The notes under the pieces were generated by a model that worked only from the letters and a program-made list of their open reading frames with translations, was not told where the DNA came from and did no database searches. Position numbers and translations under genes: made by a program. From contig ML996688.1 of the NCBI GenBank assembly GCA_010356995.1, positions 1,834,579-1,898,578 of the forward strand: DNA of 64,000 nt, in the 5' to 3' direction. Positions 14,246 to 24,300 of the stretch are shown here, piece by piece. The stretch is from Trichodelitschia bisporula (taxonomy: Eukaryota). Numbering within the stretch: position 1 is the stretch's first letter; each line of letters begins with the position of its first letter.

Positions 14246-14994
14246 GGTGACTACGGCATGGGAGTGGCGGTGGTGGTAGAGAGGAAGAGCCGAAGAAGAT
14301 GACGGGACACGGTACTGTATTATTGTTTGCGGTGGAGGTGGAGCCGTGATGTCCAGCCAAGGTTCAAGCTGCCGGTGCTCGTGATAGCTTGATACTGAGG
14401 CAGCAAAACTTGGAACCTTAGGCATACATAATTACATCAGCGGAGTTTCTGCCTTGCCCCTTTTCTCCCTCTGCAAGGCAGCAACAGCCTCAGCGATCAG
14501 GCACCACGACCAAAACAAGTCAAGCCGTTTTCCGGGAAGGAACTCGCCACCCAAGCCCTCGCCTTCCCCCCACCCAAACTCGCGCACCTCCTCCCGCCGG
14601 GCAAGAGAGAGCGGTGACTCGTAACCACGAAAACTTCTTCCCATCAACACCGCAAGGTATCTCATCAAACTTCATCACTCTCTCATCGCTGTTCCTCTTT
14701 TACATCCATCCTGCACTGTTACCCATCACATTTGCAGCGAATTTTCCTCCTCTACCGCGGCAAACGTGTCCTCTTCTTTGGGGTGCAGTCATCGCCCCCC
14801 AGTCTCCTCCCCTCACCCGACCACGCTACCTCACTGCGACAAACAACCCCCCCCCGGCCTCGGCCAAAAAAATCTCTGCACCCACAACAAACTTTCCCGC
14901 CCCGCGCGCCGAGCAAAGCCAAGCTTTCCGCTCCACGCTCCACGCTCCTCTGCTGCTAAGAATTCCGCCTTGTCTCCGCTCCACCCCGCAACCA

Positions 14995-15175
14995 CAAACA
15001 TCAATCGTGCAGAGAATCACCAACATCAACACCCGCAACTAACACACGCTAGAGTAATTGCTACAGCTGCTTGCACCGTAGCTGTTTCCACTCAGCACCA
15101 CATCAATCGTGCAGAGAATCACCAACATTAACACCAACAAGACGCGCTAGAATAACTGGTGCAGTTGCTTGCTCC
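14995..15175 (+). repeat. ~75-100 bp direct duplication in the EPL1 5' leader
   Basis: catcaatcgtgcagagaatcaccaacat occurs at ~14999 and ~15101, each followed by similar cgctaga...gcttgc. Confidence 0.85.
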
Positions 15176-15193
15176 CGCTCGGCAATCGTCGCC

Positions 15194-17051
15194 ATGGCGA
15201 CTCGCGCCACGGGTCAGCGCTTCCGGCAGCGTAAGCTGTCGATGAAGCAGGTGCTCTCCATCGTCGCGGAAGAGGACTTCGCCTCGGGCTTCGACGACGC
15301 CCAGCGCCCAGTCCAGAAGGTGGAGACGGGTGTTGAAAAGGGGGAGGAGACGGTGAGTTCGCGCGGATTTGCTTCGTGATCCCGTGACAACTAACGCAGC
15401 CTAGGAACACCATCTCCAGGCCGTGATCTCTGCCACGGCGGCCGGTAAGAAGGCCACGCTGTATATCCCCACGCCGGATGTCAATCCGTGCAGAAAGCGG
15501 GATTTCAGCGCGGCCTACCGGCCGGACTTCAAGCAACCGCTCTCGTTCATTAAGTCCTCCCAGACGGTCGAAGATCTGATCGGTCCGGCGTATTGTGCCG
15601 ACCGTGAAGATATCGAAAGTGTGGAGCGGGTTGTCTCCGGTATCCACCTTGGCTTAGGTGATACCCCCAAGCGGCGTATGGTTCTCGAAGCCTTCGAGTT
15701 GCTCTTCACCCACTTCGAGGAGCGAGCGGCAGAATCTGCCTCCGACCCGGGTCCACCTCTCCCGTTCGAGCAAATGGGCGTTGGAGAGTCCAAGTACGTC
15801 AAGCAGATGGTACCTCGTTTTGCGAAGGACCTGGAGTTCATAAAGAACGTGTACGAAATCTGGGCCAGCAAGCGCTCCAAGAACGGCAACCGGCCGCTCA
15901 TGCCCACCCTCAAGTTCGAGCGCAATGCCGAGACCGACGATGCAGACCCCTACGTTTGCTTCCGTCGCCGGGAGATCCGGCAAGTGCGGCGCACCCGCGG
16001 CGGCCTCGTCCAGGGGCAGGATAAGCTGAAGAGACTGCGCGTCGAAGTCGAATCGAGCCGCCAGCTGCAGTACAAGGCGGCGGAACGTGAGGAGACCGCA
16101 AAGGAGCGCCTGCGCGTCCAGCGCAAGGTCGTGACCGAGCGCCAGAACCTCAAGCGCCTCAAGCGCCAACTGGGCATCCGAGAGTCCGACGAGGACCTGA
16201 TGATCGATCGCAAGGTATGTGTCCCGTCTGAAGCCGCTTTTTCCGTAGCCAACACTCCGCAGGAGCCCGCTCCCAAACCCAAGCCCAAGATCGATGCCAC
16301 CGTCATTCAGCGTGGCACCGTGCCGGGCATGGTGCCCAAGGCACCACTAGTGCGTGCCGATGGCCGCCCACCAGACTCAGATCTGGTCCAACTGACCGAG
16401 GAGAAGGCACGCAAGGATGCCGCGATTTCCTCGGTCATCCAAGAGAGCATGTTGAAACACCGCACGTGGAACACCGACTGGGTCGACCTGACCTGGCGGC
16501 CAATCACGCCGCCCACCGACCAAGCCGCGGCCAAGCCGGGGTACCGCACAGCAGTGACCGAGTTCCTGCCATCTCCTCCAAGCAGCGTCAGCGATGCCGA
16601 AGATGTCGGCATGACCGACGGGGGGCGCACCCCCAAAACCACCATCAGCGAGCGTTCGAACTTCCCGATCCGATATGCCTCGCCCGCTCCAGAATCCGAT
16701 GTCCAGGTGCCGCGCGCGTCGTATCGTCGCCGTGTGGGCCGGGGCGGCCGTCTCTTCGTAGACCGCCGCGGTGTGCGGCAACCGGTGCGCGATGACGCAC
16801 CACGCTCGCCGCTTGATTCGCCTGCAACTGAGCGCCTAGCCGACGCATTTTACTACGACATAGACTCTGACGAAGAGGCAGACACCTACTTCGCCGATGC
16901 CTACGACGAGTGGAACATTAAGTACCGCGTTGCCTTTGCGCATCTTCCCAGCAGGGGCACCCAGGCCCAGGGTGGATCAGCCGAGGCTGTAAATGGAGGA
17001 CAGCAGCGGCCGAAGATCATGGGCGCGCCGGCCGGCATGAAACGGGAGTAA
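15194..17051 (+). CDS. EPL1: Enhancer of polycomb-like protein 1 (NuA4 subunit; 2 introns)
   Basis: RFRQRKLS, VETGVEKGEE.EHHLQ, YIPTPD, DDADPYVCFRRREIRQVRRTR, YRRRVGRGGRLFVDRR. Confidence 0.92.
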
Positions 17052-19021
17052 GCGAAGTCGTCCGACATCTTGCGGTCACCGGTGTTGAACTCCGTGGCCT
17101 TTTGTATTTGTATTCAAGGATTCCCCTGTACTTGTGGAGCGTTATGGCGGTGTTCGGGTTGGGGGGGTGGGAGGTCTGGCGGCGATTTCAAGGTTTCATG
17201 GGTGGCGGGTTGTCGGTTTTGCGGTGGGCGCTGGGCGCTGGTTAGGCGGGTTTTTGTGTCCGTGGATAGATTGGGCGTGTGCCTGGTCCTGCTCCAGCAA
17301 TGGAGAACTTTGTATGTGTGCATGATGTTGCCTTGGTGTTGTTGCCGTGATGTCTTCGCCGAACGGGATTGTTCGTGTCGTCCTCGATCGTCATCTGGCC
17401 GTGATCCGGGGGCTGGTAGCAGAGGAGCTGAGAGTCCGCTGTACGCGGCGCCAGCTGAGATGCGGTGTGCGGGGTCCATATAATAACCAGCGAGGAAGCC
17501 AGCTGTTCGCCATCCGCTCGTGCCTCCGTGCTCAGTATCGGGGATCGTGCTGGCGGTCCCAAAGACCGGGGGAAAATATCGCCACGATACGTATCGAATC
17601 CTTCGTGCTTGAGTGTCCGTGGTGAGTGATCGTCGTATTCCATAAGCTTGCTAAAGCGATTTTGAATTCCTGTAAGCTGTCAGCTTTGAACTGGGTCTTG
17701 GTGGAGGGGCTTTGTGGCGGTTTCTTCGTCGGAGGCTAGCTTACGGTTTGTGCTCCGCTGGACTAATTGAAAGAGATGCTGTCAAGGACGAACAAGCGCC
17801 GACGTCCGTAGGATTGTCCAACTCGTCCCCGTGGCGAAGCTGCTCGGTAGAGGTGAGGAATTCCTCTCGGAAGCCTTTGTCGTGGCAAGCTCGCGCTCGA
17901 AGGAGGGGAAAAGAGAGAGGGAAATATGGGACGAGAAGAGGATCTCAGCTCCATAGCTCAAAGAGCATAGTCATGAGCGCCAGTCCACCGGCCGTTCAGC
18001 AGAACCCCGAGTGGAATATTCCCCTCCACTCTGCTCCCCATCCAACGCACTCTCACCCCAACCGCCGGGCAAAAGAAGTCGAAAAAGGCAGCTCCATTTC
18101 CAGGCAGCAGAAGAAAGAAAACCGGTCGGAATCTCCACAGTTAAAGAGACAGGATGGTGAGTATGAGGGGAGGTGAGAAAAGAGCGGCTCGCACTCTGCA
18201 ATATTAATGCTGCGTCTGTAGCGGCTTCGAGGCGGTTAAGCGGGGAAGGTGGCCGGGGGTCCTTTTGGTGGGCTTGGCTGGGCTGGATGGGGACTGAGAA
18301 AGTCGTTGCGCTGCTGAGTGGGGGTCTTGGTGGAAGGTGAGGCGGGGAGTTTGCATTGGTGGGGAGACCCTGTGAGCCTCGTGCAGGGGTGGCGTGGTGA
18401 GGTTTGGATTGGGAGTGAGGTTTGGATGGGGAATTGATGGGGGGATTGTGATATGATGTGTGAGTGAGCTTTGAGAGCGGGGGATGGAGCTGGATGTTAT
18501 TGTCTTACGGAAGGTTTCAAAATTCTCAATGAGAGATTTCTTGGAGGATGCAGAGCTCCTCGCGGGATCTGTTGCTATTGCCATAATAGCGGCTATCGTC
18601 ATATACTGGAAGCTCGCGCCCAATTTCGGCAACGAAATTCAGTACCGCAATATCTGATGTTTACAGTAGGCGGAGAAAATTGCGAGGGAAAGGATGTACA
18701 GCGCATGCTAGAGGTGAATGCCATAGCTATGGGGGCCAGATTGATGCTGCGCGGCCAGTGAGCTTCTATCAGCTTGGCAGAGTGACGGGAGCATTCAAAA
18801 CCGGCAGCAAAAGACGTCGAATGGCGACCCCAATTTATCTCCCTAGCATGCTGTGCTCTGCCCCTACATAAAGATATCTCCCATAGCGGTAGGGCCACCA
18901 ATTGTACACACCAGAGTCGGCTTCATACTTCCCGAGTGTTGAATACGCAATGCTAAGCCCGAGATATAATCCTTCCTCCCGCAACCTCTCTCACCACACT
19001 ACGACGAGCCCAGCTCGCCCA

Positions 19022-19093
19022 TCTTCCGTAGTCTAGTGGTCATGATTTCCGCTTGTCACGCGGACGGCCCGGGTTCGATTCCCGGCGGGAGAG
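19022..19093 (+). tRNA. tRNA-Asp (GTC)
   Basis: 72 nt. Acceptor TCTTCCG/CGGGAGA, anticodon arm TCCGC-TTGTCAC-GCGGA, T-arm CCGGG-TTCGATT-CCCGG, followed by a T-run. Confidence 0.95.
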
Positions 19094-19508
19094 ATCTTTT
19101 TGCCGTTTTCGAGGACGTCGGATGTGGATGTGTCGGATCGTGATTACGGAAGCGGGACTCAGCGCTGCGGGGGAGAGGTGTGATTGGCTGAATGGGAAGG
19201 CGGGTATGGTATTAGCGATGGTGATGGGCGAGGAGGGCCTGCTTTTTGATGGATTTGATAGGAGCTTGATATGGCCGGGGTGGAGATTGGGTGTTGACTG
19301 CGAGAGCAAGGAGAGCCCTCTATTTTGCGTGTCTGAGATCCCACTGGAGTCGGCGGTGATGGGGGATGTGCCAGCCTCGACGCAACCTAACCACCCTTCA
19401 CTGGAGCTCCACTCAAATGATGTTCCCTAGCCCACAATGAAGATTGGTTGTTGTTGAGAGGCGGCTCGCCGTTTCCTGGTTAGATCTGCTCACATGACCC
19501 ACAATGTG

Positions 19509-19516
19509 TATATATA
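19509..19516 (+). promoter_or_regulatory. TATA-like box upstream of the tandem hairpins
   Basis: TATATATA about 40 nt before hairpin 1. Confidence 0.45.
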
Positions 19517-19556
19517 CCGGTTATCTAGCACATATTCTTCGAGCATTCCTCCCATC

Positions 19557-19771
19557 GTCCTTCCATCTTTAGGCGCCAGGATTTTGTCGTTTGAGAAGTA
19601 ATTGTCCGGAGACGTTATATCCGATGCGAATCTTAAGCCCGAAGGTAGTGGTTTCGTATGCTGCTGTACGAAGTCTTTGACTACCTGCAGACTTGAAATT
19701 CACTTGGGACGTAGCGTATCCCTCAACTACTTCTCAAACGACAAAAGCCTGGCGTCTAAACGCGGAGAGAC
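19557..19771 (+). ncRNA. long rod-like hairpin 1 (candidate small-RNA precursor)
   Basis: Arms pair along nearly the full length (taggcgccaggattttgtcgtttgagaagta / tacttctcaaacgacaaaagcctggcgtcta; ggtagt/actacc; ggtttcgta/tacgaagtc), with several G.U pairs on +. Confidence 0.6.
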
Positions 19772-19806
19772 TTACTGGATTCTTCGATGAGGTTTCTCCT
19801 CCTTTC

Positions 19807-20019
19807 GTCTTTCCATCTACAGGCGCCGGGACTTTGTCATTGGTACTACGATTGTTTGATATACTGTATCCGAAGTGAATCTTGAGTCCCAAAGTAGTGG
19901 TTTCGTATCTGCTGAGTGAAGCCTTCACTACCGGCAGACTTGAAATTCGCTTGGGACACAGCGTATCGGACAATTGCACGACCAATGACAAAATTCCGGG
20001 CGCCCAAACGCGGAAAGAC
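19807..20019 (+). ncRNA. long rod-like hairpin 2, diverged paralog of hairpin 1
   Basis: ggcgccgggactttgtcattggt / accaatgacaaaattccgggcgcc; gattgtttgatatactgtatccgaagtgaat / attcgcttgggacacagcgtatcggacaatt. 250-nt period relative to copy 1. Confidence 0.6.
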
Positions 20020-21357
20020 AAGCGGAGGAGATAATATGGGAGGGAGTTGGGTTGGAAGTCTGGATGGAGGACGGGTGGAAAGAGGAGATGAAGTCGGCGG
20101 AGGTGAGAGCGGAGGCCGTGCGCCAAGGGAAATGAGACGGGAGGGAACTGGGGGGATTGGGATGGTCGATTTTTGTCACACAGTTCATCATCTCTTTATC
20201 AGATCTACGACTACGTTGAATGTACACATATTTGCCTCGCTGTTGTTGAATGTGTACTATGGTATGTGCTGCTAGAGATGGTGTTGTTTGAAGTCGGTGG
20301 TCGGACATCGGGCGACCCTGAATATCGTGTGCACTCTTGATGCAGTTCGAAGCAAGCAGATGGGAAAAACATTGAGAGTTCAAGTTTCGAGTCCGAACAT
20401 ATCGAATTTATGGTCAAGTCCTGCAGTACGTCTATTCCCCTCCCCTCCCCCTGTTGAGCGGGAGCTCGACTGACGTCCGAAGCAGATCGCGAAGTGTATC
20501 TCAGTATCTATCAGCAGTTAATCCTTCAGCTATGTACCCGTATGGCACTGTCGACTAAGCTCAGTCCTGTCCAAGGGCAGAACCGGGTCCTTACCCGCTT
20601 CGCCTTTACCATGGGATGGGTGACTAGATAGTGCATCAATGCACGATGCCTTCATTGTCCCCGCTACCAGAGCCACCGGAACGGCATTTCCCCATGTTCA
20701 TGATGCCTTCACGATGACGACTTCCAACAATGACACCCTGTTGAAGACATTTAACCTTCAAATTCTCCTACCATCCAGCTTCCTACACCAACATCCACAC
20801 CAAATTGCTCACAACGGTGAGCGGCCATAGGAACTACTTCGCAACAATTTCTACGATTTCGCAGGGCCTGCTGTAAGTTATTGCTTTGATTTGCACTCTG
20901 TTAACTGACGCTTGTGCAGGTTAATTCCGATAGTAAACTCCGTAGGCAATATCCAAATCCCAATACTACGTTGAAATGTACGGGACTAACACCTCTGTCG
21001 TGGCATCTCCAAGCCGGATTCGTCAGATGAGAACTGTCCTTTAAATGACTGAGCTACCTCCCTATATCTAGGCATATACAAAGTCTCACTTCAATGGTAA
21101 GCATCACATCCTCAGCCTGATTTTTCATGAACTCAGATTCCATTGAACACCTAGATACAAATCGCAATGCTATCCCACCACAGTATCAAATATTCCGGGT
21201 ATCATCATCCATATTTTTTATCGTCGAGTCGTCATCAGTCATCAGTCATCACGTATACCATCAGGTTAACGCCAGCAGCCTGTCAACATATACCGTAAGG
21301 TGAACATCAACAGCCTGTCAACATCAACCATCCGGCAACCCCAGCAGCCCGCACCAT

Positions 21358-24300
21358 CTACCACCCATAGCTCTCACAGCGATTGAGCCAAGCAGTAGCA
21401 AACAGAACACGCCATTCATCAGCCCCCATCTTCTCCGGATTCTTCCACATGCCCACCTCCTTCGAGTTCGCCAGGTACTGGCGCGCAACATCCGCCGCCG
21501 TCTGTCCGAGATCACGATCCTTGAACGCCTGACGGAGTTCCTGCTGCACCTGCGAGTGGTGGTACATGCGGAGACGGGATTCCTGCGCATCTGCGGGGTC
21601 GGGCCACATGTGCGTGCCGATGAGCGAGGCGAAGGGGTTGGTGCTCGAGGGCTCCTGCGGGGCGACCTTGGCGAGGTTGCCGGTCGCGTTGACCATGATC
21701 TGAGATGGGTGGCTGTTTATGGCCGGAATGATGCCGGGCATCGAGTGGAACGTGCCGTAAGGGAACAGCGTCGCGAGATTGGCGTTGTCACCGCCCAGAT
21801 CGCCATCGAGATCCGGAGGAGGGCCGACGGGATCCGGAACCTTGACGACTCCCTCGAAAGCGAAGTTATCCGTGCCAGTGGGGGAGGTGGAGTCCGGAAC
21901 GCTAAAGTGGTGACCGGGATGCGGCTCGCCCACTTCCTTGGGACTCTTGTGCTTCACAATCTTGACGAGGTTCTTGAAGGAGAAGTCGCTCTTCTTGGAA
22001 GGGGCATCGCTCGGCGCCTCACTCGGCTTAGAGGAAGCCTCGCTCTGGCGCTTGGGGCCACCGAACACGGGAGCGGCGCCTTCGTTTGCATCGTCGTACT
22101 GGAAAGCGAGCAATGCTTCCTTGTCATCGGCGTCGATCGTGATGTTGCCCTTGGGATTGTTAAGATTCTCTGGGAACAGGCCCGCGGAGTTGCTAGAAGT
22201 GCTCACATCGCTCTGAGACTTCTTGAAGATCCCCAGGACTTTCTTCGCACCCTCAACCAGAGCGGCCTTCTTTTTGCTCTTTCCGCCATTCTCGGTGCCC
22301 TTCTCTTCGTGGTCGCCATCGTAGTCGTACGGGATGGTCGCCTGGCTGCTAAAGGACGAGACCTTGAGCTCGGATTCCGCACCAGCCCTAGGCGTCGCAA
22401 TGTGATGCTGGGACGGCGAGTTCGAATTGAACGGCTTTTCGTCATGGCTGACTTTGCTGTCACCCGGATTGCCGAACAGTTGGCGGGACATCGGGTTCGA
22501 CTCACTGAGCTTTCCGTCACCGATGGCCACGTTGTCCTCCGGAAGAGCGACCGCTTGGCGGCACATCGGGTGTACCGTGATGATACCTCCTCCATGGTTG
22601 ACTATCGTGTCATCTTTCGCTAGCAGGACCGGCTTCCCATGCACATCACAGAACTTGCGCTTACGGCTCTGCGGCTCCACATACGGGGTTGCCTTACCGA
22701 GCTCAGGGAGCTGCTTTTGAGTGTCCGTGGTGAGGGGCGAGTAGACAACGGTGTTGCCGCTACCCGCAGCGCCCGCACCCAAGGTGCCGTATGGGCCCAT
22801 CGGCGGCATCAGAAAACCGTTGTCTGCAATCTCGTTGGTAGCTCCCAGGCTCACTCCGTTGCCTTCAATGTCGTTGGTAACTCCCTGGCTCATTTCGATG
22901 TCCATGGCCTGACCGTTGACGGCTCCATCGTCCCCTTCGTGGTCCACGGTGACCCAGTCCATATCATCATCGGCAACCGGCTCCGGCTTGGGCTTGTGGA
23001 CGACAGTGGCAGTGCTAGGAGAGGCGAAAACTCCGCGGTCACCGTCAGCGCTCTTCGGGCCGAGAAAGCGATCAATCTCGAAGTCGATAGCCGACGACGA
23101 GTCCTCTGCATCTTGGACTCCCAACTCAACTCCGTGCGGGCTGTCAACAACGGCGTGGGCGCTCTTGGAAGTACTCATGTTGCAGTGGATGCCATAGGAA
23201 TTGAGCTGACTTCCAGGCTCGTGGATGGAGTTCTCCGGCTCACTCTGATCGGCATTCGATTCGCGCAGACGCTTGATTATGTCGGTAATGGCCAGCGCCT
23301 CCTTCGGCTCCTCGCTCGAGCTGGAATTTGCAGTCGCATTGAGGTAGGCTTTAACAGGGAGGAACTTGCCGGACCGGCTCTGAATGCCAATGCGGTCGGG
23401 CAAGCCGTTGGGGCGGCCATTGGAGACCCCCAGGACAGAGTCTGTATCGGATGCCGGGGCGTCGAACCATTCGGAAGCCTTGGGGCGGCGATCCACCTTA
23501 GCAGGCTTTTGCGACAACGCACCACCGGGCCCACCAGCAATCTTGCCATGGTACCTACGCAAGTCGCCATCTTCACGAGGCTCGCCGCGAACATAGGGCT
23601 TTACACTCGAAGGCTTTTGCGACAAAGCACCATCAGGCCCACCTACTTCCTTGCCGTGGTACCTACGCTGGTCGCCATGTTCAAGAGGCTCGCCACGAAC
23701 ATAGGACTTAGGATCATCAGTCGGACCCCCAGGCTTCTGCGACGCAGCTCCTTCCGGACCACCTTTGGCCTTGCCGTGGTACTTGCGCCAATCGCCATGC
23801 TCGAGGGGCTCCCCGCGAACGTATGACTTGATTTGTTTCTGCGAGGCAGCAGCTTTGGGACCCCCTTCCAGCTTTCCGTGGTATGTATACGACCCAGGAG
23901 TCTGGACGGGCTCACCACGCACGTAGGACTTAGGGGGGCTGTAACGGGGTTTGTTGTCGCATTTGCTGTCGCTCCTCGGGTCGTCATCGGAGCCCTGACC
24001 CTTTGAGGTGTGAACAGACTGACCAACACTCGTGCCGTCAGGGAAGATGTAGGATGCAGGCGCATCAGCCGCGGTAATAGGCTTACGGACTTCGGCACTG
24101 TCGGATTTACTTGCACCAGCCACGGGTATGCTCTTCTGAGCGCCAGAGCTGTCGGGTCCATTCAAGTCGATGAATGGGATTGCATTGTCGATATCCAATG
24201 GTGTGATATCCGACGGCGTGGATGACGACTTCGAATGGTTCCCACTAGCAGTGCGCTTGAAGCCGTACTTGCGGTCGAACTCTTCGATTTCCTTGGGCGT

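Follow-up and report, generated by a model that had tools for sequence, protein, structure and literature searches.

According to Johnson et al. (2022; PMC9757828), less than half of the published fungal microRNA-like loci stand up to basic checks, and only a few show conservation. Well-supported fungal mi/milRNA loci are described there as having fewer than 20 nt between the two strands of the duplex. The read criteria call for 19-25-nt reads, more than 80% of them from the hairpin strand, and an abundance floor, and tier 1 is kept for loci whose hairpin is conserved in related species. Excerpts of the work on Neurospora crassa (PMC3547838) describe milR-1 to milR-4 as abundant Pol III products, with milR-4 cut from a tRNA transcript, and report for milR-5 to milR-9 that some low-abundance loci give poly(A) RNA and that several are bound by Pol II. 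A dcr2 mutant of Trichoderma atroviride has raised levels of likely precursors (PMC9676055, as excerpted). The Drosophila hairpin RNAs (hpRNAs) include tandem hairpins on a common transcript, as in hp-CG4068, and a hairpin near the 5′ end of a spliced RNA, as in hp-tHMG-solo (PMC10317233, as excerpted).

The locus considered here is a tandem pair of long hairpins on contig C2 of the Trichodelitschia bisporula assembly (25.8 Mb, 44 contigs), within the window, i.e. the whole stretch of 64,000 nt that was analysed. The pair lies in a 4.3-kb gap between two converging genes, with the following setting.

Ends at 17051, + strand: upstream neighbour gene, without a Pfam hit
19022-19093, + strand: tRNA-Asp gene (Rfam RF00005, 59.7 bits), anticodon GUC as read from the sequence
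19509-19516, + strand: TATA box TATATATA, seen in the sequence, with a putative core-promoter role
Ends at 21358, - strand: convergent downstream open reading frame of 1233 codons, without a Pfam hit

The + strand gene ending at 17051 may resemble Epl1. Spliceosomal introns, together with genes such as Pep3/Vps18, mark the DNA as fungal, probably from a filamentous ascomycete. The tRNA-Asp gene stands 460 nt upstream of the hairpin unit, is followed directly by a T5 run and probably lies outside that unit. The TATA box noted in the preliminary description of this DNA is present 40 nt before copy 1 and is the sole TATA[AT]A match in 19000-21500; it is probably the core promoter of the RNA that carries the hairpins.

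The two units are paralogous fold-backs, as had been proposed, with ∼75% identity between copies and a period of 247-250 nt. By alignment, the duplicated unit consists of one hairpin and ∼25 nt of 5′ flank, and conservation between the copies is about equal in this unpaired flank and in the stem. The parts of the pair are listed below.

19557-19771, + strand: hairpin copy 1, by folding an imperfect rod of ∼85 bp, arms 75% complementary
19589-19599, + strand: lower-stem patch of copy 1, pairing with 19729-19739 within a perfect 19-bp helix
19618-19640, + strand: 5′ arm of the middle duplex of copy 1 in the predicted fold; candidate 5p strand with a 5′ U
19644-19685, + strand: apical stem-loop of copy 1, from fold energy; holds the common 15-nt block 19645-19659
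19687-19710, + strand: 24-nt 3′-arm block of copy 1, found by pattern match; candidate 3p strand
19772-19806, + strand: spacer of 35 nt, by alignment a repeat of the pyrimidine-rich 5′ flank of copy 1
19807-20019, + strand: hairpin copy 2, from the fold, arms 67% complementary; a few extra pairs extend it to ∼19795-20030
19839-19849, + strand: lower-stem patch of copy 2, pairing with ∼19976-19986; different sequence, partial pairing
19867-19889, + strand: 5′ arm of the middle duplex of copy 2 in the predicted fold; candidate 5p strand
19893-19932, + strand: apical stem-loop of copy 2, from fold energy; holds the common 15-nt block 19894-19908
19934-19957, + strand: 24-nt 3′-arm block of copy 2, found by pattern match; one difference from copy 1

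Each copy folds back on a single strand into an unbranched duplex. Minimum free energies are -105 to -111 kcal/mol, with z scores of -9.6 to -10.6, and none of 200 shuffled sequences is as stable, which answers the comparison with shuffled controls that the preliminary description had called for. The rods are also the two most stable among 1276 windows of 215 nt after GC correction. Long fold-backs alone mean little in this genome, because five others of at least 110 nt are present in 336 kb of sampled DNA (45 sequences, window included).

No Rfam family reaches its gathering score at the hairpin locus on either strand; the best match by E-value, to a plant MIR model, scores 34 bits where the cut-off is 230 bits. 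The hairpins are outside any coding sequence and are not a known structural RNA. The pair thus shares with the fungal loci of Johnson et al. (2022; PMC9757828) an intergenic position, an unbranched hairpin, the lack of a structural-RNA hit and a genome with Dicer and Argonaute genes. It differs from their well-supported loci, which the excerpts describe as short, in having a much longer stem, and from their loci generally in having two paralogues in one exon. On present evidence it would be placed in tier 3 of their scheme.

Evidence for transcription comes from contigs of two runs (X1 and X2) of one sample from one study, mapped to 14530-22029 and unstranded, and thus also compatible with antisense transcription. 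Neither run is recorded as RNA; both are taken as such because they skip canonical introns of the upstream gene. A single contig covers both hairpins in each run, spanning 19485-20425 in X2 and 19076-20425 in X1, with no sequence differences, and both runs join 20425 to 20486 across a + strand GT..AG intron. The transcript features are as follows.

19485-20425, + strand: exon 1 of a spliced non-coding RNA, from contigs, which cannot show the true 5′ end; holds both hairpins
20426-20485, + strand: intron 1, GT..AG, with a branch-point-like CTGAC; skipped in X1 and X2 contigs
20873-20919, + strand: intron 2, GT..AG; skipped in one X1 contig with 22 letters on the short side
20942-21000, + strand: possible intron 3, weak, with GT..CG ends; one X2 contig of depth 6.5 with 22 letters on the short side
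21097-21154, + strand: intron 4, GT..AG; skipped in both runs

Intron 1 fixes the + strand for the host RNA and points to Pol II, of which this RNA is presumably a product. The rods had been predicted to be transcribed, and in this one sample they are: both are in exon 1 of a spliced + strand RNA, within a contig joined across + strand GT..AG introns. Intron 4 and the later exons may belong to the same RNA, although no single contig links intron 4 to the hairpins. The contig data speak to presence and splicing, and not to level, start or processing. Contig depth is close to nil over 18280-18779, and X2 shows a step from 6 to 62 at ∼19485; the step fits a start near the TATA box, and it is not evidence for one, as contigs cannot show starts or levels.

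The locus resembles the N. crassa milR loci (PMC3547838, as excerpted) in being a hairpin locus of a probable filamentous ascomycete, and small RNAs from hairpins are known in Neurospora. Unlike milR-1 to milR-4 of that report, the host RNA here is spliced, and the tRNA gene upstream has its own T run. There is also a parallel in layout with Drosophila hp-CG4068 and hp-tHMG-solo (PMC10317233, as excerpted): a long tandem inverted repeat of imperfect hairpins lies in one spliced RNA, near the 5′ end. There are differences from the Drosophila hpRNAs of that report as well, in that the host is a fungus, there are 2 copies as against 9-20, no homologous target gene was found, and siRNAs are hypothetical here.

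Telomerase RNA of filamentous ascomycetes is also a spliced Pol II RNA. This identity was considered and set aside, as 19000-21500 has no telomere hexamer in either orientation and no Rfam hit.

Before the convergent gene, the open reading frames of at least 50 codons are three, of 96, 63 and 53 codons, and that of 96 codons starts within the 3′ arm of copy 2. The two longest were searched and gave no Pfam family and no usable Atlas hit, although such a blank does not show absence. This agrees with the earlier statement that the host RNA has no credible open reading frame. It also bears on a reading in which the RNA is a structured lncRNA or 5′ leader whose rods act whole, with no discrete small RNAs, for example by binding a dsRNA-binding protein, by titrating Dicer or by blocking scanning to the downstream small open reading frames. 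The RNA was assembled unbroken across both rods in both runs, and the two copies have the same loop hexamer and the same 15-nt block beside it, which might suit a protein-binding apex. However, there is no Rfam family, the downstream frames (53, 63 and 96 codons, the latter two searched) show no sign of being genes, and by established RNAi biology the two Dicers of the cell would be expected to cut a stem of 85 bp. Action by whole rods is therefore regarded as improbable.

The hairpin pair matches only itself in the 25.8-Mb genome at E values up to 10, so that the copy-number check raised in the preliminary description came out in favour of a single locus. Likewise, with as many as 3 mismatches allowed, the 24-nt block is found nowhere in the genome outside the pair. 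No dispersed copies were found, though very old ones could escape such a search; its sensitivity is illustrated by an unrelated palindrome, which gave 89 matches of 68-100% identity on both strands, self included. That palindrome, first met in the sampled DNA, represents a dispersed resident family of ∼220 nt with TA-flanked ends, which from its sequence looks like a MITE.

This raises the question of whether the hairpin pair is itself a DNA fold-back relic, duplicated in tandem, which stems from a template switch or from an ancient palindrome of MITE type and is transcribed only through the adjoining TATA/pyrimidine-rich promoter. The genome does carry a palindrome family of the same size, and the pair resembles its members in being a whole-element palindrome of ∼220 nt with arms 65-80% complementary and G.U pairs about as frequent as A.C. 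The 5′ flank, which is unpaired, is about as conserved as the stem, as a relic would allow. Unlike the resident palindromes, which are dispersed (89 matches), TA-flanked and without an excess of changes on both arms, the pair is unique, unrelated and in a spliced RNA. No sequence likeness to the family was found, there are no dispersed copies, and neither copy has a target-site duplication (flanks read by eye; no direct repeat, no TA pair). The canonical introns of the host RNA, of which there are at least two, also stand against a relic. We hold this explanation, the main rival of the reading preferred below, to be possible rather than probable.

In a four-arm alignment of copies 1 and 2 (∼101 columns), 7 columns are changed on both arms and yet paired, 1 is crossed, a crossed pattern being a change that chance should give as often as a two-arm paired change, and 10 have mismatches common to both copies. 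The two-arm changes of the preliminary description, including the transversions that it quoted, are thus recovered; of 12 alignment settings, 11 give a count of 7 and the other gives 8. RNAalifold reports 6 covarying pairs of 68. Simulated independent mutation gives a mean of 1.1-1.6 two-arm changes (P at most 0.0013 for the 7 observed).

The resident palindromes provide a second control. Pairs were drawn from 19 of 21 MITE-like elements (L070 gave no palindrome and L074 was too short); they are non-independent and have a mean of 77 columns, against ∼101 for the hairpins. None of the 171 pairs reaches 7 two-arm changes, the maximum being 5, and among 80 pairs of matched divergence the means are 1.6 paired and 1.9 crossed changes. 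Against both controls, then, the two-arm excess holds up as real, and routine arm repair in this genome does not account for it.

Five of the seven changes fall in one 11-nt patch, 19589-19599, where the copies differ at ∼2/3 of positions and copy 1 is perfectly paired, whereas the two columns outside the patch are at the neutral level. If the pair is a relic, the two-arm changes would be the result of one or two template-switch or intra-hairpin conversion events and not of selection, and their clustering inside the perfect 19-bp helix of copy 1 is in keeping with this. The signal may amount to about three events rather than seven, one of them the 11-nt patch, because a single template switch can convert several mismatches to pairs at once (bioRxiv 10.1101/2021.04.15.439925, as excerpted). 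Against the relic, the resident palindromes are a natural test of unselected arm repair, and no such patch is found in their 171 pairs: none has 5 two-arm changes within 11 columns, and the maximum is 3. The pattern fits a lower stem that is free in sequence and held in pairing; it also fits one rare DNA event. Of the selection on RNA structure that had been proposed, the excess of two-arm changes stands, but the changes are clustered in a patch and there is no overall strand asymmetry.

The strand arguments of the preliminary description fared less well. Over the whole arms, G.U and A.C are equally frequent, with 8 of each in copy 1 and 10 of each in copy 2 (18:18 in total), counts that rule out a G.U strand bias as evidence; the G.U-rich stretch of copy 2 quoted earlier is a locally favourable pick. 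One-arm changes from a Watson-Crick pair give 8 G.U pairs, 9 A.C mismatches and 7 transversion mismatches. Nothing overall points to selection for wobble pairs, because G.U equals A.C, as it does in the MITE-like controls (121:118); the missing G.U excess is what a relic would show. Taken whole, the rods lack the strand asymmetry of folding that had been put forward as a check. The minus strand is slightly favoured in copy 1, at -105.6 against -102.5, whereas copy 2 prefers the plus strand, at -105.4 against -99.9, and the consensus folds are nearly alike on both strands (-71.2 vs -68.8).

A preference for the + strand is confined to the apical stem-loops, which fold at -13.8 kcal/mol on the + strand against -9.1 on the - strand in copy 1 (4.7 favouring +) and at -12.5 against -6.6 kcal/mol in copy 2 (5.9 favouring +). 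Three one-sided apical changes stay paired through G.U, an observation made post hoc. The middle duplex of copy 1 is stabler on the untranscribed strand (-20.6 vs -11.6).

The 24-nt 3′-arm block and the 15-nt 5′-arm block are as first described, yet their invariance is not unusual: a 24-nt window with at most one difference occurs in ∼24% of simulated pairs at the observed identity (P 0.24-0.26 for the blocks). The zone of the 24-nt block, the upper 3′ arm, is identical between copies at 35 of 39 positions, against 36 of 53 in the lower stem (P 0.02, with zones chosen post hoc). The invariant block was accordingly set aside as evidence of a mature RNA (P ∼0.24). What speaks for the small RNA proposed earlier is the conservation between the two copies, and it stays a candidate.

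The head-to-tail period of ∼250 nt and rod-like folding on both strands are also features of a viroid-like or retrozyme-like circular rod RNA of ∼250 nt, of which the locus might be an integrated dimer. No ribozyme family is found on either strand, at the gathering score or at E values up to 5, and the + strand of 19000-21500 lacks two hammerhead core motifs. Divergence between the copies is 25%, the spacer closes no rod, and three 18-nt matches in viral contigs have neither a hairpin nor a hit to a model of the pair (R1). An origin of this kind is extremely improbable.

Homologues were looked for with the same model. Run on the window, on L006 and on 24 motif-matched loci, it recovers only the two copies; sampled stretches amounting to 200 kb yield no hit, and 8 further loci none with E below 0.96. 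L006 is the one exact match to a 21-nt pattern in a metagenome scan; having no hairpin and no further likeness, it was rejected as an orthologue and taken as a chance match, so that the metagenome and viral sequences scanned gave no orthologue. Six motifs of the locus have no match in the literature searched or in nine supplements of PMC9757828, and titles and abstract openings on polycistronic or tandem fungal precursors mention no such locus; both literature searches leave subscription journals mostly uncovered.

Genome searches give no source gene and no credible target, at a sensitivity below which seed-only targets fall, and no gene elsewhere was found with the extended homology expected of a target. 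Outside the pair, the 3′ block matches 22 sites with 2-3 mismatches over 18 nt, where a reversed control matches 7, and none of its genomic matches extends, the best reaching 25/43. The 5p candidate of copy 2 could pair with a single place on C11, in a duplex that includes one mismatch and three G.U pairs and has -31.1 kcal/mol, against -39.9 for a perfect duplex; it is one match from five patterns tried, and there is no clear gene at the site. The copy-1 patch matches a retroelement fragment at 17/20; this was rejected as a target, since 4 non-self matches against 4 in the control put the match count at control level.

Two loci of the genome combine helicase and Dicer-dimer domains with paired RNase III domains, and three loci have a Piwi domain. 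By established RNAi biology, the imperfect 85-bp stem is a plausible substrate for such Dicers. Our preferred reading, to which we give about an even chance, is that the pair is a two-hairpin Pol II precursor cut by Dicer, similar to fly hairpin-RNA clusters or to a polycistronic MIRNA gene of the plant type. A tandem duplication of one ancestral fold-back would have placed two long hairpins in the first exon of a non-coding gene, which would be transcribed by Pol II, probably from the TATA box. The host RNA is spliced, and its two rods are predicted to fold. Dicer may then cut the imperfect stems of ∼85 bp into 19-25-nt duplexes, most likely out of the apical stem or out of the middle duplex, which joins 19618-19640 to 19687-19712 in copy 1 and has its equivalent in copy 2. 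One strand would be taken up by Argonaute and repress RNAs to which it is partly complementary. In the lower stem, pairing would be required and a fixed sequence would not, and therefore the copies could diverge there while staying paired.

In support of such a precursor, both rods are in one spliced + strand RNA in an organism that encodes Dicers and Argonautes, two-arm changes number 7 against 1 crossed and no control pair reaches 7, the apical loops favour the transcribed strand, and there are two copies only, with a duplicated unit that is almost exactly the hairpin. Counting against it are the equality of G.U and A.C, the clustering in the patch, the non-significant blocks, the lack of a credible target and the ∼47 nt that would separate the strands of the middle duplex, where well-supported fungal loci have fewer than 20. 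The microRNA-like reading of the preliminary description thus keeps its single locus and its transcription, and loses its strand-bias argument. The pair is a fair but unproven candidate microRNA-like precursor. The hairpin pair itself is genuine, occupies a single locus, is transcribed and bears a partial signal of paired evolution.

Perhaps this fungus has evolved polycistrons that resemble plant MIRNA genes or fly hpRNAs, with long tandem hairpins in spliced non-coding Pol II genes, a sequence-constrained upper duplex and a freely covarying lower stem; such loci might make up a recurring class of fungal small-RNA genes that possibly arose from the palindromes of the genome. We consider this somewhat unlikely. 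A locus chosen by genome structure alone, with a host transcript, two paralogues and named candidate duplexes is a clean test of long-stem and tandem-hairpin small RNAs in fungi. The resident palindrome family, for its part, is the genome's own neutral control for telling selected hairpins from fold-back relics. If the hairpins yield no small RNA, the locus would be a decaying palindrome with one template-switch scar.

With respect to RIP, the indices, each from only 215 nt, are 1.3 for TpA/ApT and 0.71 for (CpA+TpG)/(ApC+GpT) in copy 1, and 0.77 and 0.97, respectively, in copy 2. The changes between the copies are balanced in direction over the same 215 nt.

Assembled RNA contigs from two runs of one sample, X1 and X2, cover the surroundings of the two hairpins. 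Upstream, both runs skip an intron with CT..AC ends at window 17669-17743; it belongs to a minus-strand spliced transcript that starts near 18230 and enters the 3′ end of the upstream plus-strand gene. RNA at low depth across window 19076-19493 connects the tRNA-Asp gene, from its 3′ end, with the hairpin region. This RNA is possibly read-through beyond the T5 run of the tRNA gene, and if so, a minor precursor linked to the tRNA would result.

Downstream, in window 21001-22029, a contig with the plus-strand intron 21097-21154 extends into the 3′ end of a convergent minus-strand ORF of 1233 codons, and the spliced RNA that carries the hairpins may therefore overlap the mRNA of this ORF in antisense. 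One X2 contig (depth 6.5) skips window 20942-21000, which has GT..CG ends. A branch-point-like CTAAC precedes the CG by ∼11 nt, and the first AG follows 13 nt after the CG. The CG is possibly a non-canonical 3′ splice site, seen in this one contig only.

Elsewhere in the host genome (G000), a site complementary to the copy 2 5p small RNA candidate and several fold-back sequences were found:

L077:1501-1524 (contig C11, 369515-369537), site complementary to the copy 2 5p candidate
L042:5973-6194 (contig C5, 505972-506193), palindrome family member; further members, L055-L074
L080:1394-1540 and 1675-1821 (contig C14, near 821.6 kb), LTR-retroelement fragment with fold-back inversion
L040:8589-8887, fold-back of 303 nt, unrelated to the hairpin pair
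L047:1805-1915, fold-back of 111 nt, also unrelated

The complementary site is single and pairs with the candidate with one mismatch and three wobbles; no clear gene is present in the region around it. The palindromes are MITE-like: dispersed elements of ∼220 nt, palindromic throughout and flanked by TA at their ends. A similarity search of the genome gave 89 matches, both strands counted, and copies often occur in groups of two to four within a few kb. The retroelement fragment, which we take to be Ty3/gypsy-like, has a 147 nt inversion that is a 99% perfect fold-back; the fragment lies near the end of a contig and near stretches of N. In the 111 nt fold-back the G.U to A.C ratio is 6:1, and the plus strand folds better.
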